A stretch of 38,046 bases of DNA from a virus (IMGVR_UViG_3300020045_008411:1-38046); one strand, 5' to 3'. Positions 2,907 to 29,090 are shown, counted from the stretch's first letter. Notes: generated by a model not told the origin, from the letters alone. Program-made: numbers and translations.

Positions 2907-3037
2907 TCCGCGTCCCTCCCCTTGTGCTTGGGTGTGCGGCGAAACGCACCCTTGCCCTTGCGGGCGCGTACCTTGCGAGGCGCGAGGTGCGCGCTGGCGA
3001 GCGAGGCGGCGATCGGGTTCTGGCGGATGTTTTGCAT
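2903..3037 (-). CDS. ArfA-like (alternative ribosome-rescue factor A) small protein, 44 aa
   Basis: Not in the ORF track. Hand translation MQNIRQNPIAASLASAHLAPRKVRARKGKGAFRRTPKHKGRDAE matches the ArfA pattern N-x-I-x-A-x-L...KGKGS(Y/F)xRxxKH. Has a GGAGAC RBS and is the first gene of its cassette. Confidence 0.75.
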   Translation of the reverse strand: MQNIRQNPIAASLASAHLAPRKVRARKGKGAFRRTPKHKGRDAE

Positions 3038-7991: not shown

Positions 7992-8157
7992 GGTCTGTCT
8001 CCGTTGCGATGATTCGTTCTCGCATACGCAACCGATTCGGTCAAGCAGATAATCCACCGCGCTTCGAATTTTGATAGTTACCAAAAGGGAGAAGTATGTT
8101 AACCCTAACAGATTGTTTCCCTTAAAAAGCAAGAGGCCGAAGCCCCTTGCTCTCAGA

Positions 8158-8451
8158 TCAGTCGTCGTCGCTCTCGTCGAAGTCTTCGGTCAAGTAGCAC
8201 GAGTGTTGCGTAGGCGAAAACTGGATTGACATGGAAGGCGAAAGAGAAAGTTCCGGCATATCGGCGCTGTATACTTCGCCGGTCATGTGAATCCCATCGC
8301 CGATTTCTTGGCGGCGGTTGCTAAATTCAAGCCCGGTCGTCGAACCGATGCTGCCCGTCAGTTCGTTCGCCTTTGCGTTTGCTTCCTCTTCGGTCTCTGC
8401 GAGAATGTAGAGCGAGGCTGCAATCGTTACTTCGGTCTGGAAAAGCTTCAA
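8158..8451 (-). CDS. Hypothetical protein, 97 aa
   Basis: TTG start after AGGAGAC RBS. Confidence 0.7.
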   Translation of the reverse strand: MKLFQTEVTIAASLYILAETEEEANAKANELTGSIGSTTGLEFSNRRQEIGDGIHMTGEVYSADMPELSLSPSMSIQFSPTQHSCYLTEDFDESDDD

Positions 8452-8622
8452 TGTTTGTCTCCTGCCGGTTGCTTCCGGTGGTTCGTTACTAGGGGAAGCA
8501 ACCGATTCGGTCAAGCAGATAATCCATCAATGGTTACTATGGGCGTCCACCCGGTTAACCTTAACAACCCGTTACGATAAAAGGAAAGGGGCCGAAGCCC
8601 CTTACCAGTCAGGTCGGTGTGC

Positions 8623-9060
8623 TTACACCCGCACCAAGGTGAAGTGATGCCATTCGCGGGGGTCATCAGCAGGGCAAACGAGGCGGAGGATATCGGAACC
8701 TTGTTCGCCTTGGAAGGTGCCGAGGTCTTCGCCTTTGTAGCTCACGCGCCAGAAGGGGGCCGGGTCGATATAATCGTCGTTTTCGTCGCGAGGGAGGGTG
8801 CCGATGATCTCACGGGCTGTCCAATAACCAGCCTCTTCGATCTCATCCTTCTTGGCCTTGTAGCGGTCGCAAAGCGCATAGCGGCCCGCTTCATATTCAA
8901 GATCGGAGGCTTCGCTCAGCATCTTTTCAGCTTTCTCTCGGAGCAGTTTGGCCTTCGCCCGGTCGGCTGCCTTCATGCGTTCAATTGTCTTTTCAGCTTT
9001 TTTGTTCGCGGCGAGGGTCAGCTTGTGTTCGTTGGCGAGTTCGTGTTCGCGGATAAACAT
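8623..9060 (-). CDS. Hypothetical protein with coiled-coil N-terminus, 145 aa
   Basis: Start corrected by RBS. Confidence 0.8.
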   Translation of the reverse strand: MFIREHELANEHKLTLAANKKAEKTIERMKAADRAKAKLLREKAEKMLSEASDLEYEAGRYALCDRYKAKKDEIEEAGYWTAREIIGTLPRDENDDYIDPAPFWRVSYKGEDLGTFQGEQGSDILRLVCPADDPREWHHFTLVRV

Positions 9061-9206
9061 GGTCGGTCTCCTACCGGGTGCGTCCGGTGATTCGTTTGTA
9101 TGTGAGGCAACCGATTCGCACAAGCACTTATTCCACCATTCGTGAATTTCGGTTAACCTTAACATTCGTTACCGGTGAAAATGGGGAGGGGCCGGAGCCC
9201 CTCCCG

Positions 9207-10040
9207 TCATTCCCATTCGGCATAGTCAGCGATGGCGATATCGTTCGCCCATACACTGCCCACAAAGCCATATACCGAATCGATCCCGTACCTGCGCCCG
9301 GAGTCCAGTTCGAACGTCGCCGGGAGGGTGACAGTCTTTGTCGCCGTCACATCTCCCATGCAGCCCGCGCCGTTCCAGCTAGTATGGAAAAGCAGCATCG
9401 AGTCCGGGCCGATTGTTACCGAAGCCGGTTTGCCGTGTTTGTAAACCGCTTGCAGGTCGATGCGGCCCAGCACTTTGAGGCGCTCGTGATAATACATCGA
9501 CTCCGCTGCCCAGCCATCAATGCCGAATTTGTCGGCAAGGTACTTCTGGCGGGCGGCATTGTCCTCGTCGCTCAAGTCACCGTTGGGCGGGCCGATCCCG
9601 TCGCCGTCCGTGTCTGGTGCTTCTGGGTCGGTAGGAAGGGCCACGAAATAGCCCCGTGAGGCGTTCCTGAGGCATGTTTCCAGCAGGTCGGTGCAATCCA
9701 CCACGGTTGCTTGATTGAAGGCTTCCTTCACCTCTTCCGGCATGTCCCGCCATTCGAGGTCGTCAAGTTCGTCGTTGACCGCAAAGTCATCCGGGAAAAG
9801 GATCATAATCCGTTCGCCAAATTCGCGGATGATATCCGCGTGGAGGTCGGACCAGTCGGCATAGAAAGAAGCATTGTCTTCCACTGCCGCCCACGCCTCG
9901 TCAAAGGCTTGGCGGTTTTCCAGCAGCAAAGCAATTTGCTCATTGCTCAACGTGTCGTCGTAGCTGCCATAAACCTCGTAGGGCTTGGCTTCCACCTTGT
10001 CGCTTATCTCGGCCAGCAGAATCGTTTTCGCGTCGGTCAT
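9207..10040 (-). CDS. Acidic hypothetical protein, 277 aa (MTDAKTILL...)
   Basis: AAGGA RBS; ends at a terminator. Confidence 0.8.
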   Translation of the reverse strand: MTDAKTILLAEISDKVEAKPYEVYGSYDDTLSNEQIALLLENRQAFDEAWAAVEDNASFYADWSDLHADIIREFGERIMILFPDDFAVNDELDDLEWRDMPEEVKEAFNQATVVDCTDLLETCLRNASRGYFVALPTDPEAPDTDGDGIGPPNGDLSDEDNAARQKYLADKFGIDGWAAESMYYHERLKVLGRIDLQAVYKHGKPASVTIGPDSMLLFHTSWNGAGCMGDVTATKTVTLPATFELDSGRRYGIDSVYGFVGSVWANDIAIADYAEWE

Positions 10041-10050
10041 TTTGTTGTCC

Positions 10051-10185
10051 TTACAGAACGGCATTGGCGAGGAAAAGGTGGCTTTGCTTAGCCCGCCGGT
10101 TGCGCCGAATTTCCAGCTTGTCAGCGCGTTCGATACGCTTGAGGTCGCGGCCTTCGCCCTTCTTGTCTTTGAAGATGATACGCAT
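10051..10185 (-). CDS. Basic peptide, 44 aa (MRIIFKDKKGEGRDLKRIERADKLEIRRNRRAKQ...)
   Basis: GGGAGAC RBS; first gene of its cassette. Confidence 0.7.
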   Translation of the reverse strand: MRIIFKDKKGEGRDLKRIERADKLEIRRNRRAKQSHLFLANAVL

Positions 10186-10299
10186 GTTCTGTCTCCCAGC
10201 GGTGATTCGCTGTGACAAGTGATTCGCATATTCCATCAGATAGGTCAACGACTAAATCCACGACAAATATGGTTAATCGAGGACAGGTCGGTGTTAACC

Positions 10300-10413
10300 T
10301 TAACAATTGGTTACGGACATAAAAAGGCCGGGTTGACATGACATCAACCCGGCGGCGAGGATCAGCAGGCACGCGCCCGCGATGAGGCGGGCTAGGGCGT
10401 CGATCAGCCCCAA
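10300..10413 (-). CDS. Lipobox peptide paralog 1 (MGLIDALARLIAGACLLILAAGLMSCQPGLF...)
   Basis: Not in the ORF track; homologous to three other copies; start uncertain (TTG 10413 or CTG 10407); terminator hairpin lies within the ORF. Confidence 0.6.
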   Translation of the reverse strand: MGLIDALARLIAGACLLILAAGLMSCQPGLFMSVTNC

Positions 10414-10748
10414 GCCAGATAGAACCTTATCCACTCACCTAGTACCGGCTGCCCGCCGTTCTCAGCGGCGGCGGCAATCTCGGTCCACGCCATATCCGGG
10501 TGCGTGTTGAATGCCTTTGCTTTGTCCCGCACGTAACTCTCACCGTCGAGCGTCAGGGGGTTTTCCAGAAACAGTCCGCAATAGTCGCAATGCTGCGGGC
10601 TGTCAGCTTCCCCGCCGCCTTCCACATAGGGGCCTTGCGGGTACTTGTCGCTATCTTCCCGTTCGTCCGTCGGGGTGTGGCTTCCCGCGCAGGCTTCGCT
10701 GGCACAGTCGGTGCAGAGCAGGGCGGCTTGAAAAACATAAACGTCCAT
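10404..10748 (-). CDS. Cys-rich (CxxC x2) hypothetical protein, 114 aa
   Basis: GGAGAC RBS; CTDC and CDYC motifs. Confidence 0.8.
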   Translation of the reverse strand: MDVYVFQAALLCTDCASEACAGSHTPTDEREDSDKYPQGPYVEGGGEADSPQHCDYCGLFLENPLTLDGESYVRDKAKAFNTHPDMAWTEIAAAAENGGQPVLGEWIRFYLAWG

Positions 10749-10894
10749 CGGTCTGTCTCCATTTAACTGATTGAACTGTAGGCGAGTCGTCCTGTTAGGT
10801 CAAGCAGTTAATCCACCAATAGTTAACGAATAGGGCGATCCCGTTAAGGTTAACAAATTGGTATACCCAAAGAAAAAGGGCCGAAGCCCTCTTT

Positions 10895-11062
10895 CTATTT
10901 GGCGTGTGTTTTTAGGAACGCCTCGGCTCGCTCGACCGCCGCTTCCGCTTGTTCGATTGTATAACAATCCCTTGTCCACCCAGCGTCAAGAATTAGGACC
11001 GCTTCCACGTCCGAGAGCGTTTGCAAAAGTTCCCGGATTATCGCCAGTGCCTCGGCGTTCAT
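10895..11062 (-). CDS. Hypothetical protein, 55 aa (MNAEALAII...)
   Basis: ATGA overlap; ends at a terminator. Confidence 0.65.
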   Translation of the reverse strand: MNAEALAIIRELLQTLSDVEAVLILDAGWTRDCYTIEQAEAAVERAEAFLKTHAK

Positions 11063-11550
11063 TCGCCGAAGTAGAAGCAGGCGACGTAGGCGCTCAGTGC
11101 GTCGTCTTCTTCTTCCGTGGTGGTGTGGTAGTCCGTCCACGGCGTGCCCCAATCCTGCCATTGCAAGCGCGGTACGCCGTACAGGCTGCCGCGATCCAGC
11201 GCGCCGGTGATCCGCAAGGCGGGGCCTCCCGTGGAGAGCAGAAGCGAAAACTCTTCGGCTTCGGCGGTTTCGCCGGGGTTATACCAACCGGAGCGAACTT
11301 GCAGCGAAAGAGGCTCACCATGGATTCGCTCTTCGATTGCGTCGGCGTCTTCTTCGCGGTCGATCATGCCGGTGCCGTCGCAGACCGGGCATTCCTCGTC
11401 TTTTCCGTTGCTTGCCGATTGCGTGGTTCCGGTGCCTTCGCATTGACCGCATTCGATCTGGTCGGATATGCGCGCTTCGGCGAGATCGGCCATTGATGCG
11501 ACAATATCAGCCAACCAATTTTTTGCGTTCTGAACTGCGTGGTCGCTCAT
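11059..11550 (-). CDS. Hypothetical protein with DnaJ-type Zn-finger repeats, 163 aa
   Basis: CGQCEGTG...CPVCDGTG motifs; AGGAGAC RBS. Confidence 0.8.
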   Translation of the reverse strand: MSDHAVQNAKNWLADIVASMADLAEARISDQIECGQCEGTGTTQSASNGKDEECPVCDGTGMIDREEDADAIEERIHGEPLSLQVRSGWYNPGETAEAEEFSLLLSTGGPALRITGALDRGSLYGVPRLQWQDWGTPWTDYHTTTEEEDDALSAYVACFYFGE

Positions 11551-11741
11551 GTTCGTAGTCTCCTAGGCTGCATTGCCTGTCTGGTCAGTAGCCTAGGCAA
11601 GCGATTCGCGCAAGCACTAATTCCACCACTTTACACCAATAGTTAATCCTGTGTGGAGTTTGTTAAGGTTAACGAATGCTCTCCAATTAAGTGAGGGGAG
11701 GGGCGACCAAACCCCTCCCCTCTAACCGGGAACCTTTCGGT

Positions 11742-11927
11742 TCAACCGGCCGGAGTCGATTCCTTCGCAGCGCGGTTCTGTTCATTCTGTTTGTCCACGA
11801 TGCCTGCGAGGCGCATGAGTTCTTCGCGGGCCATGTTTTCGCCGACAGGGGAGCCGTTTTGAAGGGCGGCGATGAGGGCTGGCATGATGCCGGTCCACGT
11901 GGGAGTCAGATCGATCATTTCTTTCAT
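11742..11927 (-). CDS. Hypothetical protein, 61 aa (MKEMIDLTPTW...)
   Basis: ATGA overlap with the RMF-like gene. Confidence 0.7.
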   Translation of the reverse strand: MKEMIDLTPTWTGIMPALIAALQNGSPVGENMAREELMRLAGIVDKQNEQNRAAKESTPAG

Positions 11928-12073
11928 GTCATTGATCCTTGGTTGGTGCGGTGCCGGGTGTGTCCGTTGTCCCACTGGTAGGCCTCCAGCGAGCCTGATG
12001 GGTGCGGGTTCTTCCACCATTTCGTACCTGCGCGGGCTGCTTCGTACCCGGCGAGCGAGATGCTCTCGCTCAT
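11924..12073 (-). CDS. RMF/CrpP-fold-like small protein, 49 aa
   Basis: Not in the ORF track. MSESISLAGYEAARAGTKWWKNPHPSGSLEAYQWDNGHTRHRTNQGSMT has the GY.A...G......(N/C)P(Y/H)....W..G pattern of ribosome modulation factor. ATGA overlaps at both ends. Confidence 0.6.
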   Translation of the reverse strand: MSESISLAGYEAARAGTKWWKNPHPSGSLEAYQWDNGHTRHRTNQGSMT

Positions 12074-12324
12074 CCCCATTGCTCGTCGTGTTTCGCCGCA
12101 ATCTCATTCAGCGCCGCCTTGTGATCGTCCGAAAAGCGATCCCAGAAATCTTGCACGCAATCCATACCATAGCAAGGCTCTTCCGATACCTCCGGGCGGG
12201 GTGCGTTGTACAGTACCACACAAGCCCAAAGGGCTTCATAGAGGCCGGGAACAGCCAGAACGCCGTCGTAGCATTCGGCGACTTCGTCCGGGCGGACAAT
12301 TTCAAAAGAGGGGTGCGGCTTCAT
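12070..12324 (-). CDS. Hypothetical protein, 84 aa
   Basis: Start corrected by AGGAGAC RBS. Confidence 0.75.
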   Translation of the reverse strand: MKPHPSFEIVRPDEVAECYDGVLAVPGLYEALWACVVLYNAPRPEVSEEPCYGMDCVQDFWDRFSDDHKAALNEIAAKHDEQWG

Positions 12325-12444
12325 TGGTCGGTCTCCTGATTGGTTGGTGAAGGGCTTCGCCTTTGCTCGGCTGCACCTCTTCACCTGATTTGCTTTTAGA
12401 TGGGTGAACCGATTCGGTCAAGCACTAAATCCACCTAAATGCGA

Positions 12445-12582
12445 TTAACAGTTAAGGACGCAGGAGCTTGTTAACCTTAACGAATTACTACCATAAAAAT
12501 AGGGGCTGGTACAAGCTACCAGCCCCATTGCGATGATCAGGAGGATGACTCCCATGAGTAATCGGCTCAGCGCATCAATCAT
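12445..12582 (-). CDS. Lipobox peptide paralog 2 (MIDALSRLLMGVILLIIAMGLVACTSPYFYG...)
   Basis: ATG with GAGGAG RBS and ATGA overlap; lipobox LVAC; terminator within the ORF. Confidence 0.7.
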   Translation of the reverse strand: MIDALSRLLMGVILLIIAMGLVACTSPYFYGSNSLRLTSSCVLNC

Positions 12583-13004
12583 TCGTTCTCCTCGGGAACG
12601 TCCCACGAGAGAAGGAACCACGCTTGGCAGTAATCGTCGCAGTCGTCGCCGTCGTCGTCGATCAGTACTTCCAGCGAGGAATCAAAAGGCATATCGAGCC
12701 GATCCGCATTCTCCTCCCGTAGTCGAGCAAGGGCCGCCTTCCCTGCCTCGTAGTCGAAACCTCGGCGATTTTCACCCATGGACCAACCCACGTTTTGGTA
12801 TTCGCTTTCGAGTTCGTCCAGAACGCAGCCGATCGAGGTATTGCCGAAGACAATAGCGCCCAGCAGCAGTTCGCCATCGCGATTGTGATGATCCCTGAGG
12901 TAGCCTGACAGGCAAGTGTCGATATGCGCCCAGATGAATGCCTCGCCGGCCGCTTCGCGGGCAGAGCGGAGTTGTTCATCGAGCGAAGGAAGTAGAATGG
13001 CCAT
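12579..13004 (-). CDS. Hypothetical protein, 141 aa
   Basis: Start corrected by RBS. Confidence 0.75.
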   Translation of the reverse strand: MAILLPSLDEQLRSAREAAGEAFIWAHIDTCLSGYLRDHHNRDGELLLGAIVFGNTSIGCVLDELESEYQNVGWSMGENRRGFDYEAGKAALARLREENADRLDMPFDSSLEVLIDDDGDDCDDYCQAWFLLSWDVPEENE

Positions 13005-13163
13005 TGGCTGTCTCCTAGCACTGAATTGCGCTGCATTTGCTCTAGGAGTTTGGTGAGTGATTCGCAAGCAAATAATCCACTAAATATTCCACCAACTAAG
13101 GTAATCAATTGTTAAGGTTAATGATGTGTTGAGATGAAAGGAAAAGGGCCGGAGCCCTTTTCC

Positions 13164-13319
13164 CTATACTTCAAACTCGCAAAGGATATTATCATCCTCG
13201 TCCACGACTTGCGTGTGATAGCCAGTGGTATCCCACAGTTGTTCGGCAATCGTTTCGGCTGTGTCTTTGCTGAGATGGCTTCGGCGAACTACGCCATTTA
13301 CTTTGACTCGATATGCCAT
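13164..13319 (-). CDS. Hypothetical protein, 51 aa (MAYRVKVNGV...)
   Basis: Not in the ORF track; GGGGA RBS; stop abuts the terminator. Confidence 0.65.
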   Translation of the reverse strand: MAYRVKVNGVVRRSHLSKDTAETIAEQLWDTTGYHTQVVDEDDNILCEFEV

Positions 13320-13334
13320 AACTATCCCCAATCT

Positions 13335-13541
13335 CTAGTAGGTAACTTTGAAGCCAACAGGCTGGATTGCCAGAACGCGACCATCGCGCATGTAGGCATC
13401 GGCACAATCGTGGTGATCCGAGTCATCTTCCATGAACGCGGGGTTCATTTCGTTCACCGCATTCTTCGCTTCGGCGAAGGTCGCCACCGTCGCGAGGATG
13501 GTGTGGCGTCCGTTCATGTTCGTTTCAATGATTTCGATCAT
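13335..13541 (-). CDS. Hypothetical protein, 68 aa
   Basis: GGAGAC RBS. Confidence 0.75.
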   Translation of the reverse strand: MIEIIETNMNGRHTILATVATFAEAKNAVNEMNPAFMEDDSDHHDCADAYMRDGRVLAIQPVGFKVTY

Positions 13542-13558
13542 TGGCCTGTCTCCGTTGG

Positions 13559-13608
13559 TGATTCGTTTCTAGGACAGACAACCGATTCGGTCAAGCACTT
13601 ATTCCACC
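13559..13608 (-). promoter_or_regulatory. Representative cassette promoter (sigma70-type) with two GANTC sites
   Basis: Minus strand reads ggtggaataagtgc-TTGACC-gaatcggttgtctgtcc(17 nt)-TAGAAA-cgaatca, followed by RBS GGAGAC and ATG. The same layout recurs in most of the 35 modules. Confidence 0.85.
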
Positions 13609-13676
13609 AATGTGCGAACTATTGTTAAGGTTAATAGTCATTCATAAATAAAAGAAAGGGGGCCGAAGCCCCCAAC

Positions 13677-13862
13677 TTAATCAACTTTGACAAATTCAAC
13701 TTCATCGATTTCCCAAGTCAGACAATCGGTCTCCCATGATTCGCTGTTGTCGAAGTTGTATTCCTCCACGATCTGGCGGGCCTCTTCCGCCGTATCGGCT
13801 TCGACTTCGATTCGCTGGCGGGTCTTTTCGATCGCGATATATTCAATCAAGAACTTGGCCAT
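13677..13862 (-). CDS. Small acidic protein, 61 aa (IEVEADTAEEA motif, DpnD/PcfM-like)
   Basis: GGGAGAC RBS; common phage V-E-A-x-x-x-E-E-A motif. Confidence 0.75.
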   Translation of the reverse strand: MAKFLIEYIAIEKTRQRIEVEADTAEEARQIVEEYNFDNSESWETDCLTWEIDEVEFVKVD

Positions 13863-14215
13863 TATGCTGTCTCCCTAAGGCGTGGTCGTTCGGTTGCGTA
13901 AGTCTTGCGGGCCTCGCTGATGGCTTCGCTAATCATGTCGGTGAAGTAGGAGCCGTGGCGTCCCTTTGCGCCTACGTGGTCGCGGAAGTCCTCTGGGTTT
14001 GCGTAGAGCGAGCCGCCAAGGTAGGCTTCGCCGATGGTGTTACCGGTCGCGCGTTCGAGGATTTCAGCGTGGAACGTATAGCAAGCCCATTCGCCGCTTG
14101 CGAGTTTTTCAGCCACTTCGCCGGTGTCGTCCCACGACAGGTCCACCGTGTCCTGATCGTAATCGCAGGACATGCGGGCGATGAAGTTTTTGGTATTGAA
14201 CTGCCAGATGATCAT
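13862..14215 (-). CDS. Hypothetical protein, 117 aa
   Basis: Start corrected by RBS. Confidence 0.8.
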   Translation of the reverse strand: MIIWQFNTKNFIARMSCDYDQDTVDLSWDDTGEVAEKLASGEWACYTFHAEILERATGNTIGEAYLGGSLYANPEDFRDHVGAKGRHGSYFTDMISEAISEARKTYATERPRLRETA

Positions 14216-14324
14216 GGTCTGTCTCCGTTGGTGATTCGTTACTAGGACAGACAACCGATTCGGTCAAGCACTTAATCCACCAATAGTTAATGCCGGCGCA
14301 TGTGTTGTTAACCTTAACAAGATA

Positions 14325-14420
14325 CTAACCAGCAAAAGGAACGGGGTGGCACGCAGCCACCCCGCAAGCGATGAGTAAGAGCATTACGCCCATGACGAGT
14401 CTACTGAGGCCATCGATCAA
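14325..14420 (-). CDS. Lipobox peptide paralog 3 (MIDGLSRLVMGVMLLLIACGVAACHPVPFAG)
   Basis: TTG start overlapping the upstream TGA; lipobox VAAC; hairpin within the ORF. Confidence 0.65.
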   Translation of the reverse strand: MIDGLSRLVMGVMLLLIACGVAACHPVPFAG

Positions 14421-14815
14421 GCTGCTTGCGCAAGCTCCCCCAGAGGGTTGACGCCGTAGTGATTTGCCACGTCGAGCAGAATCGTGTCCAGATAGTCGAG
14501 CGATGCTTCGTGAAGTTCGCGCACGCTCTTTTCAGTGCATCGGGCCAGTGGGTTGGTCTTTACCGGTCGCGAATAGTCACCAGCGCCGACAAAGCTGATC
14601 GCGTGCCGGAAGCCATAATCGGTCTTGTAAACGACAGTCGCACTCGCGCGCAGGCCGCCGTTGTACTGCTTGCCGGTGGTGATTTCGAGTTGGGCCAAAC
14701 CGGGGGTGTCGCAGGACATGACATCCTTTTCGATCACGCCGGGGAGGGGGATGATCGATTTGGCTTCCCAGCCATTGCGGTCACTCTTGGTCAAGGTGGT
14801 GGTCGGTCGTTCCAT
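14417..14815 (-). CDS. Hypothetical protein, 132 aa
   Basis: GGAGA RBS; module upstream. Confidence 0.8.
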   Translation of the reverse strand: MERPTTTLTKSDRNGWEAKSIIPLPGVIEKDVMSCDTPGLAQLEITTGKQYNGGLRASATVVYKTDYGFRHAISFVGAGDYSRPVKTNPLARCTEKSVRELHEASLDYLDTILLDVANHYGVNPLGELAQAA

Positions 14816-14970
14816 TGTCTATCTCCACCGCTCTATTGCGGTGATTCGTTTCTAGGACAGACAACCGATTCGGTCAAGCACTTATTCCACCAATAGTTAA
14901 TGCCGGCGCATGTGTTGTTAACCTTAACGATCGGTTAAGGGTAAAAGGAAAGAGGCCGAAGCCCCTCGCC

Positions 14971-15471
14971 TTAGCAGTAGTAGATTCGTTCCCCGTCAAA
15001 ATAGAACTCGCCGCCGCGATCCGCCCGTGTGTCCGCGTTCATGGCCTCAAGGCAAGGCGCGTCGCCATTGTCGGTGAAGCTGACTCCGTGACCGACAAAC
15101 AACATGTAGAACGTGGAGCCGATGCTTTCGTGGGTGATGTAGTTGCGCCCGTATTGCAGGCCCGGTTCGCCCGGTACAAGGTCCAATGCCGCCTCGATTG
15201 CGTCCGCGTTGCGGGCCATGAAGCCCTCGCAGAGGTTCTTGCAGGTCTGATAGATCGGCTCTGCCAGCGTGTAGATCGTTCCCGTGTCCCCTTCCTCGCG
15301 CTCTTCCTCGCTGGCCGCATCGGCTTCACTATATTGCAGGTCTTGCAGCATGGTGGCAATGAAATCAGCAAGGATCGGACAAGCCTGAAAATCAGCCTTG
15401 CGAGCGGCTTCCTGTGCGCGGGTGGCTTCGTCCACTTCGTGGAAGGCGGTATAATCGCGGGCGTTAGGCAT
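14971..15471 (-). CDS. Acidic hypothetical protein, 166 aa
   Basis: Start corrected by RBS. Confidence 0.8.
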   Translation of the reverse strand: MPNARDYTAFHEVDEATRAQEAARKADFQACPILADFIATMLQDLQYSEADAASEEEREEGDTGTIYTLAEPIYQTCKNLCEGFMARNADAIEAALDLVPGEPGLQYGRNYITHESIGSTFYMLFVGHGVSFTDNGDAPCLEAMNADTRADRGGEFYFDGERIYYC

Positions 15472-15616
15472 TGGTCTATCTCCGTTCAACTGATTCGGTT
15501 TTAGGTTAGATCACCGATTAGGTCAAGCAGATAATCTACCATGAATTAACATAAGGTACGTGGTTGTTAAGGTTAATGTGTAGTTACCGGAAAAAGGAAA
15601 GGGCCGAAGCCCTCGC

Positions 15617-16030
15617 CTATTCGCAATTGAGAAATTCGCGCTCCACATATTTGCGGAGATTCGTATTGCGCCGAAGTACCGTATCAGGGGAGGGATTCCA
15701 ACCGCCGCCGCTTACATATTCGGATTCATCTTTACCGAAGCGAAGAACCGATTCGAAATCTCGTTCGATACCGCCATAGGCCTGTGCCGCGTAGATCAGA
15801 TCATCGCGGGAGGCTTCTACGGGAGTCATGCCGATAACATCAAGCATGTTAGCAGCCTTCGCAGGGTCGATAAAGATATGGCCCTTGTCCACGTGAAAGA
15901 GATTGTCAGGCCCGCCCGCGTCGCTGCAAGGTGTTACCACCACCGCTTGGATATAATCCGATCCATCATCCAGCCAATAGAAGCCGCCACATTCCAGATT
16001 AATATCGCCGCTGTACTTCCACTTCGCCAT
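15617..16030 (-). CDS. Hypothetical protein, 137 aa
   Basis: GGAGAC RBS; terminator downstream. Confidence 0.8.
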   Translation of the reverse strand: MAKWKYSGDINLECGGFYWLDDGSDYIQAVVVTPCSDAGGPDNLFHVDKGHIFIDPAKAANMLDVIGMTPVEASRDDLIYAAQAYGGIERDFESVLRFGKDESEYVSGGGWNPSPDTVLRRNTNLRKYVEREFLNCE

Positions 16031-16191
16031 GGTCTTGTCTCCACCGCTTGCTTGCGGTGATTCGTTCTATGACAGACAAGCGATTCGGTCAAGCACTTAT
16101 TCCACGAATAATGGTTAACGCCGGCGGCCGTTATGTTAACCTTAACAGATCGTTACCGTCAAAGGAAAGGGGCGGATCGCTCCGCCCCTTG

Positions 16192-16833
16192 TCATTCGTC
16201 CAGAGGCTCAGGCGGTTCCGCCTCGCAATCCCAGAGAGGGGCCGGGTCGGATTCATCCCAGAGGTCAAGCGGGGTGTGATATTCAGGCCCTGCAAGATCG
16301 TAATCCTCCGGCAGCAGGTAAAGTGCGGCTTCGCGATACGTGTCAAACTCCGGGTCACCATCGCCGCCAAATTCCACAGCGTTATCATCGCGGCGGATGG
16401 CGAAGCGGCCATTGCTATGGTAAATTGATTCGGTCGGGCCGCCGGTCTGTCGGTTGTTACGTGAGGTATATTGCAAATCCGACCAGCCTTGGAAGTCCAA
16501 CGCTTCATCGCGGCTTGCCGCCACAGGGGCAAGGGCCAGCCAATCGGCGAAGCCACTATTAAGGCCGTAATACACGCAATCTCGAACCGCCTTAGGCAAG
16601 TCAATCCACCGCAAGTCGCGTGACGTGCCGGACTCGGTGACTTCCTCCACATAAGCCAGATCGATCGACTCGCCCCACATACCGAAGCCTTGCGGGTGAG
16701 TCGGATATGCAGATGAAGCGAAGTAATCACCATCGCAGGTGATAATCGTGAACCGATCAGCGGTTGCGCCGCCGTTGTCAATGATTCGAAAGATGAACGG
16801 CTTGAGGTCGTCCAACGATTCAAAAAGCTGCAT
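16192..16833 (-). CDS. Acidic hypothetical protein, 213 aa (DNGGATADRFT motif)
   Basis: GGAGAC RBS; terminator downstream. Confidence 0.8.
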   Translation of the reverse strand: MQLFESLDDLKPFIFRIIDNGGATADRFTIITCDGDYFASSAYPTHPQGFGMWGESIDLAYVEEVTESGTSRDLRWIDLPKAVRDCVYYGLNSGFADWLALAPVAASRDEALDFQGWSDLQYTSRNNRQTGGPTESIYHSNGRFAIRRDDNAVEFGGDGDPEFDTYREAALYLLPEDYDLAGPEYHTPLDLWDESDPAPLWDCEAEPPEPLDE

Positions 16834-16978
16834 GGTCTTGTCTCCACCGCTTGCTTGCGGTGATTCGTTCTAGGACTAGCAACCGATTCAGTCAAGCACT
16901 TATTCCACGAAAAGATAGTTAACGATCGGACGGGTGATGTTAACCTTAACAAGTCATTACCGGGTAGAGGCTTTCGCC

Positions 16979-17170
16979 TCAGTACCCCATTCCCGTCAAC
17001 CTTTCGCCCATACGGATGGAAGCAGCTTCGCGATTCCGCTGGCACATGGCGAGGAAAGTTTGCGACTTTTTCAGCCGCAGCAGCGCCCGGTGGTGGGCGT
17101 CTCCGTTGTCATCGAATACGCGCTGGCGATGGAAGCGCAAGAGACGCTCCAGCTTCTCTTGCAGGCTCAC
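16979..17170 (-). CDS. Hypothetical protein, 63 aa
   Basis: GTGA overlap. Confidence 0.65.
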   Translation of the reverse strand: MSLQEKLERLLRFHRQRVFDDNGDAHHRALLRLKKSQTFLAMCQRNREAASIRMGERLTGMGY

Positions 17171-17427
17171 AGTTGCTGACCGTTCATAATAAGCAAGGCC
17201 TCTTCTTGCAGGTCGTGAAACAGCTTTAGCAATGTTTCATAGCGGGCGAGGTACGTCGCCCGGTCCATATCGTACTGGGCAGGGCTGCCGACGTAGTCAC
17301 GGCCATGTGGCGCGGTCTCGCGAAGCTTGTCCATAGCGGGACGCAAGGCGTCCATTACTTCCCGGCGTTGATCGACCAACGATTCGCGGGCGGTTCCGTT
17401 CATGTTGACAGTCGGGCGCATAAACAT
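17167..17427 (-). CDS. Hypothetical protein, 86 aa (PTVNMNGT...APHGRDY)
   Basis: Start corrected by GGAGGAGAC RBS. Confidence 0.8.
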   Translation of the reverse strand: MFMRPTVNMNGTARESLVDQRREVMDALRPAMDKLRETAPHGRDYVGSPAQYDMDRATYLARYETLLKLFHDLQEEALLIMNGQQL

Positions 17428-17536
17428 GGTCTTGTCTCCTCCGGTTGTTTCCGGTGATTCGGTTCTAGGACTAGCAACCGATTCGGTCAAGCACTTATTC
17501 CACTAAATGCTAACATCCGTTAACCTTAACAGATCG

Positions 17537-17635
17537 TTACCCGAAAAATAGGGGCTGACATGATGCCAGCCCCAGTGCGATGATTATCAGAACGACGCCC
17601 ATGATAGCGCGGGCGATAGCGTCAAGTAAGCCCAC
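17537..17635 (-). CDS. Lipobox peptide paralog 4 (MGLLDAIARAIMGVVLIIIALGLASCQPLFFG)
   Basis: GTG immediately after the upstream TAG; lipobox LASC; terminator within the ORF. Confidence 0.65.
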   Translation of the reverse strand: MGLLDAIARAIMGVVLIIIALGLASCQPLFFG

Positions 17636-17869
17636 CTACTGACCGCAGGCCTTGAGGAATCGGGCGCGGTCGAACTTGGGATTGGACTCTGCCAGTCCAT
17701 CGGCGAAGTGCTGACAGATCGCGAGATTCTGGTTAGGGAACACGCCCTGATTCGGACCGAGGTCGGCGAGTACGCCCGCGATGACGGCGAAGTGTCGGTG
17801 CTGCATGGTCGCCGGGTGTTTCGCACCCAGTTGATCCTTGTTCAGGGCGGCGGTGTTGCTCAAAGCCAT
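17636..17869 (-). CDS. Hypothetical phage protein, 77 aa (NPKFDRARFLKACG motif)
   Basis: GGAGAC RBS. Confidence 0.8.
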   Translation of the reverse strand: MALSNTAALNKDQLGAKHPATMQHRHFAVIAGVLADLGPNQGVFPNQNLAICQHFADGLAESNPKFDRARFLKACGQ

Positions 17870-18013
17870 AGGTCTGTCTCCATCGCTCTATTGCGATGAT
17901 TCGTTCTAGGTTAGGTAACCGATTCGGTCAAGCACTTATTCCACCGATTGAGGGTTAACGGACGTGGTGTTTCTGTTAACCTTAACGGATTGTTACCAAC
18001 CAAAAGAGAGGGC

Positions 18014-18199
18014 CTAAGCCCTCTCTCCGTTCGAGTCGTGGAACGTGACGCCGCGAAGATTGCCGTAAGCGCCTTTGACGCGTTCCTTATAGGCGGCTTC
18101 CGTTTCACCGATGGCCGATGGTCCGTAGTCCACCCCATTGACGCGGTGGAAGTACCGGCCTTGCGGTCCCCATTGGCAGGGGAAAGGGTGAGTCGTCAC
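18014..18199 (-). CDS. Hypothetical protein, 61 aa
   Basis: GTGA overlap; ends at a terminator. Confidence 0.65.
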   Translation of the reverse strand: MTTHPFPCQWGPQGRYFHRVNGVDYGPSAIGETEAAYKERVKGAYGNLRGVTFHDSNGERA

Positions 18200-18462
18200 G
18201 CCGCCTTTCCTTCGATAGCTTCCCGGATAAATTCCTTCCACGCGGTCGGCTTCATATCCATCGGGGCAGAGTAGTTGAGCCCGTCGAGCCGCAAGATTTG
18301 CAGATAGCCGGTGTCGTAGGTTTTCATTTCCACTTCGACGCCCTGCACCGAGCCGAAATAGACAATCCACTTCCGGCGGTTGGCGAGGCGGGCGCGGTTC
18401 AGATCGGCCACGAACGCGGCAGCGGTGTCGTAGCTGGGGTTGTCTTCAAGAACACGAATCAT
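18196..18462 (-). CDS. Hypothetical protein, 88 aa
   Basis: GGAGAC RBS. Confidence 0.8.
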   Translation of the reverse strand: MIRVLEDNPSYDTAAAFVADLNRARLANRRKWIVYFGSVQGVEVEMKTYDTGYLQILRLDGLNYSAPMDMKPTAWKEFIREAIEGKAA

Positions 18463-18628
18463 GGGTCTGTCTCCGTCGGCTTGCTTGCCGGTGATTCGGT
18501 TCTAGGATAGGCAACCGGTTAGGTCAAGCACTTATTCCACCTAAGCCAGTCATGGTTAACCGATCGGTCGGCGGTGTTAACCTTAACAGATTACTACCGG
18601 CAAAGAGAGAGGGGCCGAAGCCCCTCTT

Positions 18629-19141
18629 TCAGCCGAACCACTTCATTAGGTCGTTTTCGCTGGCCATACCGTTCCAGAGGTCTTCACCCATGGAAGGGTC
18701 CGGGCACAATTCCCAGCCATCGTCATCCGCCCATTTTCGGTCCAACAGATATTGCGTTTGGTCGGTATCGATGCGGCTTTCGTTTGCTTGGTGGGCGTCG
18801 TTGATCGCGCTCGCTACAGCAAAGGCAAACGGTGTGCCCTGCTTATTCCAAGCGTCAATTTCCTCCTGCAAGGCGTTCCGTATCGCCAGCAAGGCGATTG
18901 AGCGGGGCAGGCGTGGGTCGGGCTTGGGCTTCGTGTCTTCCCAGTGGATCACGTATCCCGAATAGGCCTTGAGCCCTTCCGCTAGGTCGATGAAGTCCTC
19001 GGATGCGCCCTGCGTGCCGCTCGGTCCGTCCGAGAACTGCCATTCAGTATCGCCTTCCGAAACGCCAGCTTTTCCGTGGGCTTCCGGGTCGGTGACGACG
19101 CCGCTGAAAACCCAAATCTCTTTCGTGTCAGTGTTCAACAT
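18629..19141 (-). CDS. Acidic hypothetical protein, 170 aa
   Basis: GGAGAC RBS; terminator downstream. Confidence 0.8.
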   Translation of the reverse strand: MLNTDTKEIWVFSGVVTDPEAHGKAGVSEGDTEWQFSDGPSGTQGASEDFIDLAEGLKAYSGYVIHWEDTKPKPDPRLPRSIALLAIRNALQEEIDAWNKQGTPFAFAVASAINDAHQANESRIDTDQTQYLLDRKWADDDGWELCPDPSMGEDLWNGMASENDLMKWFG

Positions 19142-19308
19142 TGGCCTGTCTCCGTCGGCTTGCTTGCCGGTGATTCGGTGATAGGGCAGTCAACCGCTTA
19201 GGTCAAGCACTTATTCCACCGAAGCCAGCCTATGGTTAACAGATCGGCCGAAGGTGTTAACCTTAACAGATTACTACCGGCAAAGAGAGAGGGGCCGAAG
19301 CCCCTCTT

Positions 19309-19569
19309 TCAGAATTGCGATAAGGTGCCGCCCACTTGCAGCATCTCATCGCTGTGCCACGCCAGTACGCGCGGCTTACTGGCGAAGCCATAGGGCAGGG
19401 CAAGGTAGGTTTGGAAAATTCGCTCAGGCTTTGTTCCGCCTGAATCGTCGTCTTCGATTTCGTAGTAGGCCTGCCAAAGTTGACGCGCTTGTTCCGCATC
19501 GCTGGCCTGCACAACCAAGCTACGGTCCTCGGCCATGCCGTCCGCGTCGGTGATAACGAAGATTTTCAT
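19309..19569 (-). CDS. Hypothetical protein, 86 aa
   Basis: ATGA overlap; terminator downstream. Confidence 0.75.
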   Translation of the reverse strand: MKIFVITDADGMAEDRSLVVQASDAEQARQLWQAYYEIEDDDSGGTKPERIFQTYLALPYGFASKPRVLAWHSDEMLQVGGTLSQF

Positions 19570-19736
19570 TCGCCATGCTCCGCCACGTAGTCATTCAGGA
19601 CGGCGCAAACGCGCTCGGCCATTTCCTGTCCGGCGTCGCTGATTGCGAACGTGGCGACCTCGGTGCCGTTGTCGATGTGGTAGACGATGCTGCGCGGCTT
19701 TTCGGCGTTTTCGAGAACTGCGAAGTCGTATGTCAT
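19566..19736 (-). CDS. Hypothetical protein, 56 aa
   Basis: Start corrected by RBS. Confidence 0.75.
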   Translation of the reverse strand: MTYDFAVLENAEKPRSIVYHIDNGTEVATFAISDAGQEMAERVCAVLNDYVAEHGE

Positions 19737-19813
19737 GATCTGTCTCCGTCGGCTTGCTTGCCGGTGATTCGGTTCTAGGTTACGCAACCGATTCGGTCAA
19801 GCACTTATTCCAC

Positions 19814-20206
19814 CTAATAGAATGCATTTTTGCTGGTGCGCTCCACTCCAAGGGTGTCTTCCAGTTCGTGCAGGAATGCCATATCATCCGCGCCGGTGTC
19901 GCAGTAGGATGAGCCGATTGATCCCTGCACGTAACCGATGGCGTCCGCCAGTGCGGCTTCCAGCATCTTGATGCGCGCGTCTTTGTCCTCCTGTGGCTTA
20001 TCGAAAAGGGGCGAGGGGTTGACCATTTCCTCCGGCGCATCGATCGAATAATCGCCCGCGTCTAGGCGCTCCGGGTCGATCAAGGCGATGATGGATAGAA
20101 AGTCCTCCGCCGCTTGGATGGTGTCGAAGCGGGCGATTTCTTCGATAGCAGGATCACCGGGCTGCGCTCCGATGATGCTAAGTCCGACGCTAACTGGTTT
20201 CTGCAT
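19814..20206 (-). CDS. Acidic hypothetical protein, 130 aa
   Basis: Start corrected by RBS; stop abuts the next promoter with no terminator. Confidence 0.75.
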   Translation of the reverse strand: MQKPVSVGLSIIGAQPGDPAIEEIARFDTIQAAEDFLSIIALIDPERLDAGDYSIDAPEEMVNPSPLFDKPQEDKDARIKMLEAALADAIGYVQGSIGSSYCDTGADDMAFLHELEDTLGVERTSKNAFY

Positions 20207-20354
20207 GATCTGTCTCCATTGCTGTTCGGTCGTTCTAGGGGGCACAACCGATTCGGTCAAGAACTTATTCCACCAATAGTTAACATTTCTGGGGTGGTGG
20301 TTAACCTTAACGAAGCGTTACCGGTAAAGAAAAGGCGGGCCGAAGCCCGCCCGT

Positions 20355-20651
20355 CTAATCGATCTCCGCGCCGAAGGCGTGGCAGGTGCGGTCCGCGCCG
20401 TTCTGTTGTTTCAGCAGGTCGGGCCACTTATCGACCAGCAGCTTGACGCCTAGGAACTCATCCTGCACGAAATAATCGGTGACAGTTGCCATCCCGATGC
20501 CGTTCACGCGCACCCGGACTCGCCCGCCGATGGGTGGTGGCGGGTTTTCGTTGCTCCAGACCGCCTTGCCTTCCGCCTGTCGCAGGAAGCCCTTTTCGTC
20601 GCGCTGGCCGGGTTCCCAGTCGGGGAGGGTGGTGTGATACGTGATGCTCAT
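20355..20651 (-). CDS. Hypothetical protein, 98 aa (first cassette of the array)
   Basis: GGAGAC RBS; terminator downstream. Confidence 0.8.
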   Translation of the reverse strand: MSITYHTTLPDWEPGQRDEKGFLRQAEGKAVWSNENPPPPIGGRVRVRVNGIGMATVTDYFVQDEFLGVKLLVDKWPDLLKQQNGADRTCHAFGAEID

Positions 20652-20721
20652 GACTGTCTCCGTTGCTGATGATTCGTTCTAGGTCAATCAACCGATTCGG
20701 TCAAGCACTTTTTCCACCAAT

Positions 20722-20920
20722 AGTTAACGTCGATCGGCGTTTTGTTAACCTTAACAGATCGCGTAAATCCGTTAACCATTTGCGTTAAGGTTAACAAACG
20801 CATTTTTAGCCCCTCGTTAACCTTAACAGGCTGTTAAGGTTAATGAACGGTTTGTTAAGGTTAATGGGAGGGTGGTTTTCGTTAACCTTACGATCGGCGA
20901 AAGTTGACGCGCCGTTAACC
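20722..20920. promoter_or_regulatory. Dense cluster of GTTAAC/GTTAAGGTTAA (CtrA-like) sites
   Basis: About 9 GTTAA-based motifs in 200 bp, including TTAA-N7-TTAA at 20823-20837. Confidence 0.65.
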
Positions 20921-20949
20921 TTTCGGCGGGCAGCGGTGCCGGCGGATTC

Positions 20950-21132
20950 AAAATGACCGGATTCATAAAAAGCAAAATGGCCTCGATCCATAATTTCGGC
21001 GGGGCAAAATGGCCTCGATCCATAAAAGCAAAATGGCCTCGATCCATAATTTTTTTTTTTCGAAAATGGCCTCGATCCAAAATGGCCTCGATCCATAATT
21101 TTTCAGCAGAGCAAAATGGCCTCGATCCATAA
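20950..21132 (+). repeat. Direct repeats AAAATGGCCTCGATCCA(TAA) x6 plus one degenerate copy
   Basis: Copies at 20974, 21006, 21030, 21063, 21079, 21113; degenerate copy at 20950. Confidence 0.9.
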
Positions 21133-22184: not shown

Positions 22185-23918
22185 CTACCTGTTGCTGGTG
22201 CCACCGAGCTTCTTTGTTCCCCGGCGTCCCTTCTGTCTAGCCCATTTGAGATACTGCGAGGTGCTATCGACTTGGTCATCGTTCTTGCCGTTGGGAAACG
22301 CGACGAGTTCCTTGAGATAATCCGCCAGCCACTTGGCTCGTGCAGGGAGGAACACCGTGCCGGCCTCGATCATGGGTGTGATCTCATCGAAACGAAACTC
22401 CTTCGACGAGATACCGACCTCGATCGGGATCAGCGCGGCTGGAGCGCCGCCGTCTTTCTTCAACTGGCAGTAGGCGAGACCGTTGCCTTTCGTTTCGACC
22501 AGCAGCGCATCGGCGTTGTATCGCTTACAGACGCGGGCGATTTCCGACGACATTTCGGTAAATTCCATCTGCTTTCGGACCACGTCGATCAGATAATGGT
22601 TCTTTTTGAAGTCCTCATACCAGACCGTGATGACCGTGAAGTCGGATCGTTCCTTCGCGGTGTTGGCGGCGTCCACAGAAACCACACAGCGTCGGACTTG
22701 GTTGACGAGTCCCTTCTCAGGATCGCCCCGACTTGGGGCAGTATCGTAGTTTTGGAACCATGCGGATTCCACTGCTCCGCCGCTCACGTCCATAGGTGTA
22801 CCCTGATAGAGCGAGTTCCACGACGAAGGAGTCATGTCGGCTTTTAGATTTTCCAGCGCGTCTAGCGTAAAAAGTTCCGGCCACAAAACTTCACCAACCG
22901 CCCTACCTAATGGGTCGTTTTCGTCTTCGCAGATAGCGGGGAGATTAATGATCTCGAATTTGTATTTAATTCTATTACCGGAGTTTTCTTCAATCTTTTC
23001 AATGATATCCTTTGTTAAACTTTCTTGAAGTTTTTGATCTTTTTCATCAGCCTCTCTTGACTCACGATCGGCGATACGTCCGCAAAGGTCGTCCGAGTGC
23101 CAGCGGGTCATAATAATACCGAGCGGACTACCGGGGAGTAGCCGCGTGGAAAAGTCATCTGAGTACCATTTGAACACGGTCTCGCGGACCAAGGCGCTCT
23201 CGGCGTGGGCTCGTGATTTGTAAGGGTCATCGACCATGCCGTAGTTGCCACGGAAACCCGAAATACCTTGGCCGGCCCCTTTGCCCACGTATTTCCCGCG
23301 TCCGTTGGTGAGCGCCCAATAATCCATAGCGCGGGCGTCGTGCTTGATCACCACGCCGGGGAAGACAGCCGCATAGTCTTCCGACTGGATGATCTGGCGA
23401 ACCTTGGCTCCCAGTTCCTTGGCGACGAAGTCCTGACTATGGCCAGCTTGGAGGAAGCGTTGCTTGGTGCCGATCTTACCAAACCACCATGCCGGGAAAT
23501 AGTGCGACGAATGGGTTGACTTACAATGACCCGGTGGTAGAGAAAGCATGAACCGCATGGTGGTCTTATTGGCGGACGACATGAGCAGGTCACCGATAAG
23601 GTTCTGGTGCGGACTCATGACATAGTCGTTCTCCCGCTCCATGAACTCGTAGAAGTCATGGTAGGATTCACGTGCCAGTTCTACCCATACTTCCACCAGT
23701 AGGGCGTCGGCTTGATCAATCGCTGCTTCCAGCAGATCGATCTGTAGGTCGATATCCTGAGTTTCAGTCAGGGTTATCAGAGCGGTCCAGTCGCGGGCGG
23801 AGAGAGTTCGATTCTCGCGGATCGCTTCCTCCACTCTGGTCAGCAAGGACCTGAGTGACTTTACCGATGAGTGCAAGCGTGTTTTGCGCTCCCGACGAGT
23901 TTCCTTTATCTGAATCAT
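22185..23918 (-). CDS. terL: Terminase large subunit
   Basis: Walker A LPPGHCKST, Walker B MVDDP, coupling motif MTRWH, nuclease motifs SVDAA and NDDQVDS; exact start uncertain. Confidence 0.95.
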   Translation of the reverse strand: MIQIKETRRERKTRLHSSVKSLRSLLTRVEEAIRENRTLSARDWTALITLTETQDIDLQIDLLEAAIDQADALLVEVWVELARESYHDFYEFMERENDYVMSPHQNLIGDLLMSSANKTTMRFMLSLPPGHCKSTHSSHYFPAWWFGKIGTKQRFLQAGHSQDFVAKELGAKVRQIIQSEDYAAVFPGVVIKHDARAMDYWALTNGRGKYVGKGAGQGISGFRGNYGMVDDPYKSRAHAESALVRETVFKWYSDDFSTRLLPGSPLGIIMTRWHSDDLCGRIADRESREADEKDQKLQESLTKDIIEKIEENSGNRIKYKFEIINLPAICEDENDPLGRAVGEVLWPELFTLDALENLKADMTPSSWNSLYQGTPMDVSGGAVESAWFQNYDTAPSRGDPEKGLVNQVRRCVVSVDAANTAKERSDFTVITVWYEDFKKNHYLIDVVRKQMEFTEMSSEIARVCKRYNADALLVETKGNGLAYCQLKKDGGAPAALIPIEVGISSKEFRFDEITPMIEAGTVFLPARAKWLADYLKELVAFPNGKNDDQVDSTSQYLKWARQKGRRGTKKLGGTSNR

Positions 23919-29036: not shown

Positions 29037-29061
29037 CTAACAGGAAGAATTATCCTAGACG
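29033..29061 (+). promoter_or_regulatory. Class-2 promoter
   Basis: TTGACT-aacaggaagaattatcc-TAGACG; near-identical to 34790 and 35727. Confidence 0.7.
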
Positions 29062-29090
29062 CACATCACGCCCAACTGAGAACAAACATC

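Follow-up and report, generated by a model that had tools for sequence, protein, structure and literature searches.

Cor and the T5 protein Llp are reportedly phage lipoproteins of superinfection exclusion, and TisB and Ibs are said to be type I toxin peptides similar in kind to DinQ. The phage superinfection-exclusion lipoproteins mEp Lpp021 and Lpp010 carry the lipobox [LVI][ASTVI][GAS]C and are described as acting through their mature domain, the leader not being expected to matter (PMC11893012). Type I toxin peptides of this kind are single transmembrane helices of 25-30 amino acids with a weak start; DinQ, a single helix, starts with GTG (PMC3567139). In E. coli arfA and B. subtilis brfA, a stem-loop or an intrinsic terminator stands ahead of the stop codon and output is set by the ribosome-rescue pathway (PMC8012679). 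The direct terminal repeats of CbK-like phages are described as containing many predicted CtrA sites and many genes without a known function (PMC9437464). Here we describe four short genes in a 38,046-nucleotide virus sequence (IMGVR_UViG_3300020045_008411:1-38046, hereafter the window) that encode a hydrophobic peptide ending in a lipobox, and in which the lipobox codons lie within the terminator-like hairpin of the transcription cassette.

Whereas arfA and brfA encode soluble rescue factors, the product here is a signal-peptide-like helix, encoded by a phage in two to four paralogues with the hairpin in the lipobox codons. In contrast to the mEp lipoproteins, conservation lies in the leader, with a mature part of about five residues or none. 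The likeness to type I toxins lies in size, single helix and weak start; unlike them, the peptides have no antisense partner that we could find in the window, include a lipobox subtype and belong to early cassettes of a lytic phage. A cassette array beside the gene for the terminase large subunit (TerL), with predicted CtrA sites, is also found in the terminal repeats of Lacusarx, RXM and phiCbK, as far as these are described (PMC9437464, PMC5648845, PMC8953757). The first helix of the YgaP-like TM/DUF2892 family (PF11127) gave sub-threshold matches to two of the four window peptides (E 0.003) and to 6 of 24 relatives (E 0.01-0.33); the best score, 18.1 bits, is under the cut-off of 25.3, and the matches cover at most positions 5-35 of 66.

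Positions 1-21,000 of the window form an array of minus-strand cassettes. Every cassette combines a promoter core that recurs through the array with one or two short genes, and it also has a hairpin and a GTTAA(GG/CC)TTAAC box. The array contains at least 26 copies of the core GTGGA..TTGACC..CCTAGAA, which would be the promoter of the cassettes, and about 30 terminator hairpins. TerL is 84% identical to that of Erythrobacter phage XM05, 67% to those of vB_EliS-L02 (L02) and Lacusarx, 53% to that of RXM and 39% to that of phiCbK. Judged by its sequence, the window belongs to a Lacusarx/XM05-like phage and covers its early cassette array. The equivalent region is reported as a direct terminal repeat in RXM (PMC8953757) and Lacusarx (PMC5648845); because the array matches this region, we infer from its position that the cassettes are expressed early.

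The four unannotated open reading frames (ORFs) proposed in the initial annotation all translate as described there, from the minus strand, and are almost certainly real genes (Table 1). Each begins on or next to the stop codon of the upstream gene, with starts that are weak or ambiguous (TTG, ATG, TTG and GTG in genes 1 to 4). The stops of genes 1 and 4 are the TAA of CtrA-like motifs themselves, and one frame, that of gene 2, does read through a CtrA-like box as had been claimed. The Kyte-Doolittle maximum over 15 residues is 2.6-3.1, the Cys is found at position 24-26, and AlphaFold predicts a single helix of residues 3-26. The n-region carries one Arg or Lys, as in 51 of the 54 family members presented below, offset by Asp or Glu. 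A lipobox had been read in all four peptides: LVAC, VAAC and LASC agree with the strict pattern given above, and LMSC falls outside it. A hidden Markov model (HMM) of the four peptides found no fifth copy in the window (next match E 2.6).

The hairpin was confirmed to lie inside the ORF in all four cases, in the usual terminator position, that is 20-23 nt ahead of the GTTAA box, where ordinary UUCG-type terminators are located elsewhere in the array. A terminator scan ranked these hairpins as the four best terminator-like sites within 8000-21000; they fold at -19 to -23 kcal/mol (z -3.2 to -4.3 versus shuffles) and are followed by 6 U in the 8 nt 3' of each stem. The 3' arm of the gene 2 hairpin is offset by 2 nt relative to the codons, and the Cys is nevertheless kept. 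We listed 30 cassette hairpins by hand, 28 of them with an assignable ORF. The stop lies upstream of the stem's 3' end in 24 of the 28 cassettes (inside the hairpin in three) and downstream of the stem only in the four peptide ORFs, past the U-tract at the uneven distances that had been noted (+24, +54, +14 and +11 nt in genes 1 to 4). In Zymomonas, a sphingomonad, mapped 3' ends are reported to peak 7 nt past the stem (PMC7566282). Release at stem+8 would give four uniform products of 29-31 amino acids, each ending in Phe at Cys+5, instead of the lengths set by the stops; the 3' ends so predicted for genes 1 to 4 are at about 10319, 12494, 14334 and 17543. It is probable that most window transcripts of the peptide cassettes are non-stop messages. 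As a separate observation on the array, cassette stops are mostly 0-10 nt upstream of the stem, with three within it, which is tighter than closely coupled translation and transcription would predict.

Table 1. Location of the features discussed in the text (window positions, unless another locus is named).
Feature	Position	Strand	Remarks
Peptide gene 1	10300-10413	minus	37 amino acids, LMSC; stop is the TAA of a GTTAA box; start ambiguous: TTG 10413, CTG 10407 (overlaps upstream TGA) or GTG 10434
Peptide gene 2	12445-12582	minus	45 amino acids, LVAC; ATG in ATGA overlap, Shine-Dalgarno-like site
Peptide gene 3	14325-14420	minus	31 amino acids, VAAC; TTG in TTGA overlap
Peptide gene 4	17537-17635	minus	32 amino acids, LASC; GTG right after upstream TAG; stop is the TAA of GGTAAC
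Terminator-like hairpin and U-tract, gene 1	10319-10353	minus	hairpin 10327-10353; predicted 3' end ~10319
Hairpin and U-tract, gene 2	12494-12526	minus	hairpin 12502-12526
Hairpin and U-tract, gene 3	14334-14364	minus	hairpin 14342-14364
Hairpin and U-tract, gene 4	17543-17573	minus	hairpin 17551-17573
Upstream gene of peptide 1	10404-10748	minus	114 amino acids, Cys-rich, no family; peptide after 6 of 8 homologues
Upstream gene of peptide 2	12579-13004	minus	141 amino acids, acidic; invariant HxDTC and DHHxRxGE motifs
Upstream gene of peptide 3	14417-14815	minus	132 amino acids; peptide after 1 of 8 homologues (the window copy); several others end in an ordinary terminator
Upstream gene of peptide 4	17636-17869	minus	77 amino acids; peptide after 7 of 14 homologues
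Putative promoter core, cassette 4	17897-17944	minus	repeat; precedes cassette 4
Equivalent cores	14843-14890; 13041-13080 (divergent); 10769-10816		
CtrA-like GTTAA(CC/GG)TTAAC box of the cassette next to cassette 4	17519-17530	either
Equivalent CtrA-like boxes	14307-14318; 12470-12481; 10293-10304
ArfA gene	2903-3037	minus	44 amino acids, own stop; comes first in a cassette of its own; 28.1 bits against Pfam PF03889 (cut-off 25.5)
TerL gene	22185-23918	minus
Permuted alpha-type tmRNA gene, XM05	L311 1501-1905		in tRNA cluster
Permuted alpha-type tmRNA gene, L02	L312 1520-1928		in tRNA cluster
Permuted alpha-type tmRNA gene, G001	L313 1501-1932		in tRNA cluster

Relatives were collected from IMG/VR by promoter-pattern and TerL searches, from five annotated phage stretches and XM05, and with two further patterns. 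With a threshold of 12 bits, iterated HMMs found 43 distinct DNA copies in the window plus loci L001-L178 (next match 9.3 bits), and 11 further copies came from L184-L310, two copies truncated at locus ends being excluded. The resulting 54 copies bear out the expectation of relatives in related phages under purifying selection (dN/dS 0.2-0.3, detailed below). They are of two types: 29 are of lipobox type, with Cys26, and 25 are of a short type (23-26 amino acids, without Cys) in which the same helix is followed by a normal stop before the hairpin or in its loop or 3' arm. All 29 members extending past residue 26 have Cys26, and 28 of them have the strict lipobox; all 29 also fit a looser pattern that we take to be like PS00013. 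The conserved residues are D/E5, G/A6, R/K9 (51/54), G/A13 (54/54) and A20. There are 24 ATG, 8 GTG and 9 TTG starts, and 13 copies have none of these within six codons of D5.

Since 25 of the 54 copies lack the Cys and end at a normal stop, lipidation and the non-stop layout cannot be the basic function of the family; the helix is its conserved unit, and the lipobox and non-stop layout are a clade-specific addition. Non-stop copies being defined as those with at least 5 U and a stop at least 8 nt past the stem, these sequence rules place 21 of the 29 lipobox copies in this class. The non-stop messages of the initial annotation are thus predicted for these 21 copies, the window four among them, and not family-wide.

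Searches of whole records gave 3 copies in XM05, 4 in L02, 2 in Lacusarx, 3 in RXM (4 by local search) and 3 in G001, all within the early cassette region, and found none in phiCbK, DSS3P8, RcXuper, Mwe-JY26 or one 36%-complete contig. By this distribution, the family seems confined to sphingomonad-type CbK-like phages. The genes are unannotated in the XM05, L02, Lacusarx and RXM records. Among 18 contigs with at least two copies, some of which represent the same phage, 16 have a single type and two are mixed (L02, L106/L254); identity between copies is 62% within contigs and 41% between them. A DNA tree of the 54 copies has 12 supported branches out of 51, with too few columns to order events. 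A metagenome pattern fixing just the 5' arm, the loop and the box had the peptide in frame upstream in 14 of 17 matches.

The protein databases yielded 18 matches among 1.84 billion representatives and 19 in a word-indexed set, all of at least 29 amino acids and unnamed or 'hypothetical'. The peptides had no match above cut-off in Pfam, PHROGs or NCBIfam and no usable match in the ESM Atlas, and a locus search with the four-peptide alignment gave 36 pattern matches, none of which was confirmed. Weak library matches were rejected as generic lipoprotein leaders (VirB7 E 0.16, LptM, Rz-like spanin E 0.11), and the sole match among PDB sequences (TrmD, E 0.6) was taken as chance. Cellular homologues were not found in 401 sampled Proteobacteria genomes, in a search without positive control.

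Codons and RNA structure both bear marks of selection. In 21 lipobox copies, differences at the three codon positions are 0.42/0.15/0.61, and pN/pS is 0.45 in frame versus 0.74-3.11 in the five other frames. Protein-level selection had been proposed with the ratio of nonsynonymous to synonymous changes (dN/dS) as the test named beforehand, and this ratio, with Jukes-Cantor correction, is not near 1: it is 0.26 among the window four, 0.31 in 15 copies chosen by synteny with the upstream gene of peptide 2, and 0.20 in 37 close pairs, the pairs behind all these ratios being non-independent and mostly HMM-selected and pS being near saturation in the window-four and synteny sets. In the stem, 6 of 10 pairs show two-sided changes, with 85% pairing versus 26-55% when slid. 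In the loop, the second base of the Ala/Ser codon and the T and G of the Cys codon are invariant in 29/29 copies while third positions vary; eight of these copies were fetched by a loop-fixing pattern, and the other 21 show the same loop constraint. A U.G wobble is retained in 7 of 29 copies rather than losing the G of the Cys codon. Because the stem covaries and the loop varies as codons do, RNA structure and lipobox are, to judge from these copies, both selected in the same nucleotides. A reading as conserved RNA only was rejected, as variation tracks codon position, in the loop too.

The same membrane peptide could have acquired its layout as a tolerated by-product of compaction, the terminator having slid into the ORF, the tail being free, and a lipid-anchored or read-through product working without regulatory rescue. 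We regard this as possible though rather unlikely. It would account for a graded series in which the stop precedes the hairpin, lies in its loop or 3' arm (L035, L086, L069, L115, RXM), stands at the stem's end (L106, L185) or lies beyond, and for the three ordinary window cassettes with a stop inside the hairpin. The frame of the box relative to the ORF is also distributed 14/7/7 (p 0.17), tending to the nearest stop. Retention of the U-tract with a stop beyond it in 21 of 29 lipobox copies argues against compaction, as do read-through tails of 21-36 residues in 6 of 29, which are expected if those codons are seldom transcribed. One lipobox copy of L02 (L174 5735-5971) lies mid-operon and keeps hairpin and lipobox without a U-tract. 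Compaction would explain this copy too; the hairpin may there have a role besides termination.

The four upstream genes differ (Table 1). The peptide follows 15 of 15 homologues of the upstream gene of peptide 2 (14 by regular expression, one at offset 31), and these carry either short or lipobox forms. The model of this protein (pLDDT 89) has no PDB fold match (best E 0.08, best Z 3.4); its structural look-alikes are uncharacterised phage proteins, including those of Pseudomonas phages, and it is possibly metal-binding. Where homologues of the upstream genes have no peptide, an ordinary terminator often stands directly 3' of their stop. From this pattern of presence and absence, the peptide module is judged to be mobile.

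Attachment to several unrelated upstream genes would also suit a cis-acting decay element (RUTEX, as in zntR-arfA), in which the non-stop trailer triggers trans-translation-coupled decay of the upstream mRNA and so times out early genes, phage ArfA giving relief. The anatomy is that reported for zntR-arfA, where a single mRNA carries first a gene with a stop and then a non-stop ORF (PMC10107115), and both ArfA and tmRNA are phage-encoded (see below). The known effect is described as independent of the upstream ORF sequence and as working in artificial constructs, whereas here the helix and lipobox are under amino-acid selection, and the 15 homologues just mentioned carry short and lipobox forms alike; we hold such an element to be improbable.

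The adjacency of every ORF to an upstream stop, mostly in the -1 frame, suggests a still less probable alternative, in which frameshift or stop read-through joins the helix to the upstream protein as its C-terminal membrane anchor, or the helix is a Tad/type IV pilin mimic. A D/E at position 5 ahead of a hydrophobic run resembles mature pilins. The frames are mixed (-1, 0, +1), overlaps of 1 or 4 nt are typical of translationally coupled genes, and a Shine-Dalgarno site of their own is present in several members. The pilin reading is opposed by Arg/Lys9 and by the lack of a prepilin leader and of any pilin family match; both forms of the idea are very unlikely.

The array encodes a ribosome-rescue factor, ArfA (alternative ribosome-rescue factor A), a gene absent from the initial annotation. 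As it has its own stop, the tmRNA control known from E. coli arfA does not apply to it. ArfA scores above cut-off in four of five related genomes (XM05, L02, RXM and G001, not Lacusarx), being annotated as hypothetical in XM05 and unannotated in L02; it also occurs in several IMG/VR contigs, and Caulobacter phage Cr30 has a tblastn match. A survey gave 19 ArfA matches in 201 genomes and is uninformative on the ArfA status of phage hosts. Alpha-type tmRNA (RF01849) is likewise above cut-off in four of the five (XM05, L02, Lacusarx and G001, not RXM), and the L02 tag ends in LAA. RF00023 matches in related phages were discarded, being under cut-off at loci where ARAGORN finds just tRNAs, and the 38-kb window fragment itself contains no tmRNA or tRNA. 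The RXM ArfA (PMC8953757) and the Lacusarx tmRNA (PMC5648845) are already in print. ArfA is reported to release chains untagged, and arfA and brfA themselves to be expressed from non-stop mRNA (PMC8012679). A phage ArfA would make a non-stop layout cheap; it did not arise for these peptides, since RXM has ArfA yet only short members.

We tentatively favour, at somewhat less than even odds, a reading in which the four are trailer genes of a single-helix peptide overlapping the terminator hairpin, with non-stop mRNA, rescue and a 25-residue helix freed by LspA that changes the host envelope early in infection, exclusion of superinfecting phages being the likeliest purpose. Translation would be low and coupled to the upstream gene, from starts on or beside its stop. 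Most transcripts would end at stem+7 to +9, five codons past the lipobox Cys, the stop lying 11-54 nt beyond the stem. The stalled chain of 29-31 amino acids would be released untagged by ArfA or ArfB, or tagged by tmRNA. The ribosome exit tunnel hides 30-40 amino acids; because the chain has about this length, it would have to be rescued before insertion, and the earlier idea of a stalled signal peptide jamming Sec is doubtful. Membrane insertion would be post-translational, as reported for E. coli peptides of 27-33 residues (PMC7549839), followed by processing by Lgt and LspA; lipid processing of the lipobox-type peptide is likely. The cut before Cys26 would give a 25-residue helix matching the whole of the short relatives. 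The LspA site would thus do the job of a stop codon, and the tail, whether short, tagged or read-through, would become irrelevant. With the lipobox as the processing site, stop-defined tails can vary from 3 to 36 residues, in contrast to the uniform release products, and the terminator is free to move into the ORF. In the weakest step, the helix would pack on a host membrane protein through a small-residue face (G/A6, R9, G/A13, A20), so that the attachment or DNA entry of a later phage is blocked.

Superinfection exclusion or envelope remodelling is our best guess because of the early position, the envelope location, the paralogue dosage and the precedent of phage lipoproteins; by analogy with these, an exclusion or envelope role is conceivable, though short of an even chance. 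A more elaborate version is rather improbable: a phage non-stop switch in which the lipobox codons are the terminator, the survival of the peptide is settled by phage ArfA acting against the tmRNA of host or phage, and the C-terminus is set by signal peptidase II, which also strips the degradation tag.

Several points weigh against the favoured reading. Exclusion lipoproteins act through a mature domain, of which almost nothing is left here: no receptor-blocking domain follows the Cys, the predicted five residues being all, and the stop-defined tails are unconserved. The net charge of the n-region is 0 in all four window peptides, which is weak for a Sec signal, and permutation shows no significance for the helical-face pattern (p 0.6 for volume, 0.17 for hydropathy). 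Eight of the 29 lipobox copies, among them all three of XM05, are not predicted to be non-stop: in five the stop is no more than 7 nt from the stem, and three have weak U-tracts. A ribosome coupled to RNA polymerase is reported to be able to suppress an intragenic terminator (PMC7858274, citing Li 2015). Coupled ribosomes could give stop-containing read-through messages, which weak starts would lessen. ArfA and the non-stop layout are not linked, as the gene is present in RXM, with its short members only, and absent from Lacusarx. The Cys, kept in 37 of 38 distinct database sequences, is replaced by Tyr in the remaining one. The limits given above on dN/dS and on the eight loop-fetched copies count on the same side.

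The small size, single hydrophobic helix and weak starts, with 13 of 54 copies having no ATG, GTG or TTG near the start, equally recall DinQ (PMC3567139), and the peptide could be a toxin like DinQ, TisB or Ibs, helping to take over the host by depolarising its inner membrane, with the dose limited by weak starts and tmRNA tagging instead of by an antisense RNA. This is unlikely. The promoter core has no plus-strand copy as opposed to 26, and we found no source of complementary RNA in the window, with no complementary stretch of more than 12 nt except the palindromic box and no Rfam match, an RNA from another promoter type or from outside the fragment being possible. The peptides have just two charged residues, both N-terminal, and early depolarisation of the host would be costly for a lytic phage. 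Selection of a lipobox with almost no mature domain would fit the roles first suggested, a decoy or inhibitor of Lgt, LspA or Sec, or a secreted signalling lipopeptide. The absence of the Cys from 25 of 54 members makes an Lgt/LspA decoy unlikely family-wide, the residues after the Cys follow from the stem and U-tract and differ widely among database matches, and weak starts imply too little product for enzyme titration; we consider these roles very improbable.

Other features of the region were observed. Between the array and terL, positions 20770-21130 contain tandem short repeats and ORFs with repeated IMDRGHF and NYGSRPF, likely a repeat boundary or packaging region; extra GTTAA-type boxes lie nearby at 20742-20890. 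Paralogous plus-strand ORFs of about 120 amino acids sharing 'AAxWLExNPxxHxTG..A..CFCAVGRI' occur at 27561, 27914, 28635, 29091 and 35980 (within 27561-29471 and 35980-36360). The minus-strand 11059-11550 protein has a CxxCxGxG zinc-finger segment, Anti-TRAP/DnaJ-like, with a score under cut-off. In the RXM terminal repeat (L176 5298-5798), an annotated ArdA antirestriction gene adjoins a short-type peptide cassette.

Natural non-stop genes were known before, as were small membrane proteins of phages; the peptide family and the combination of the two appear to be new. Neither these peptides nor a lipobox encoded by a terminator turned up in literature searches or when terms were looked up in papers on Lacusarx, phiCbK, RXM, L02, CtrA and marine-phage proteomics, the proteomics tables S1-S13 being where XM05 and L02 could be concerned. 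This conserved, multi-copy early family has been overlooked in the records of four cultured phages whose hosts can be grown, Erythrobacter or Citromicrobium for XM05, L02 and RXM, which makes it directly testable. If the non-stop and LspA steps are true, the peptides would be a natural substrate for phage ArfA and tmRNA, and lipoprotein processing in a Gram-negative host would yield the signal peptide as product and not as waste. If they are not, the family is still a new small membrane protein through which CbK-like phages may exclude superinfecting phages or take over the host.

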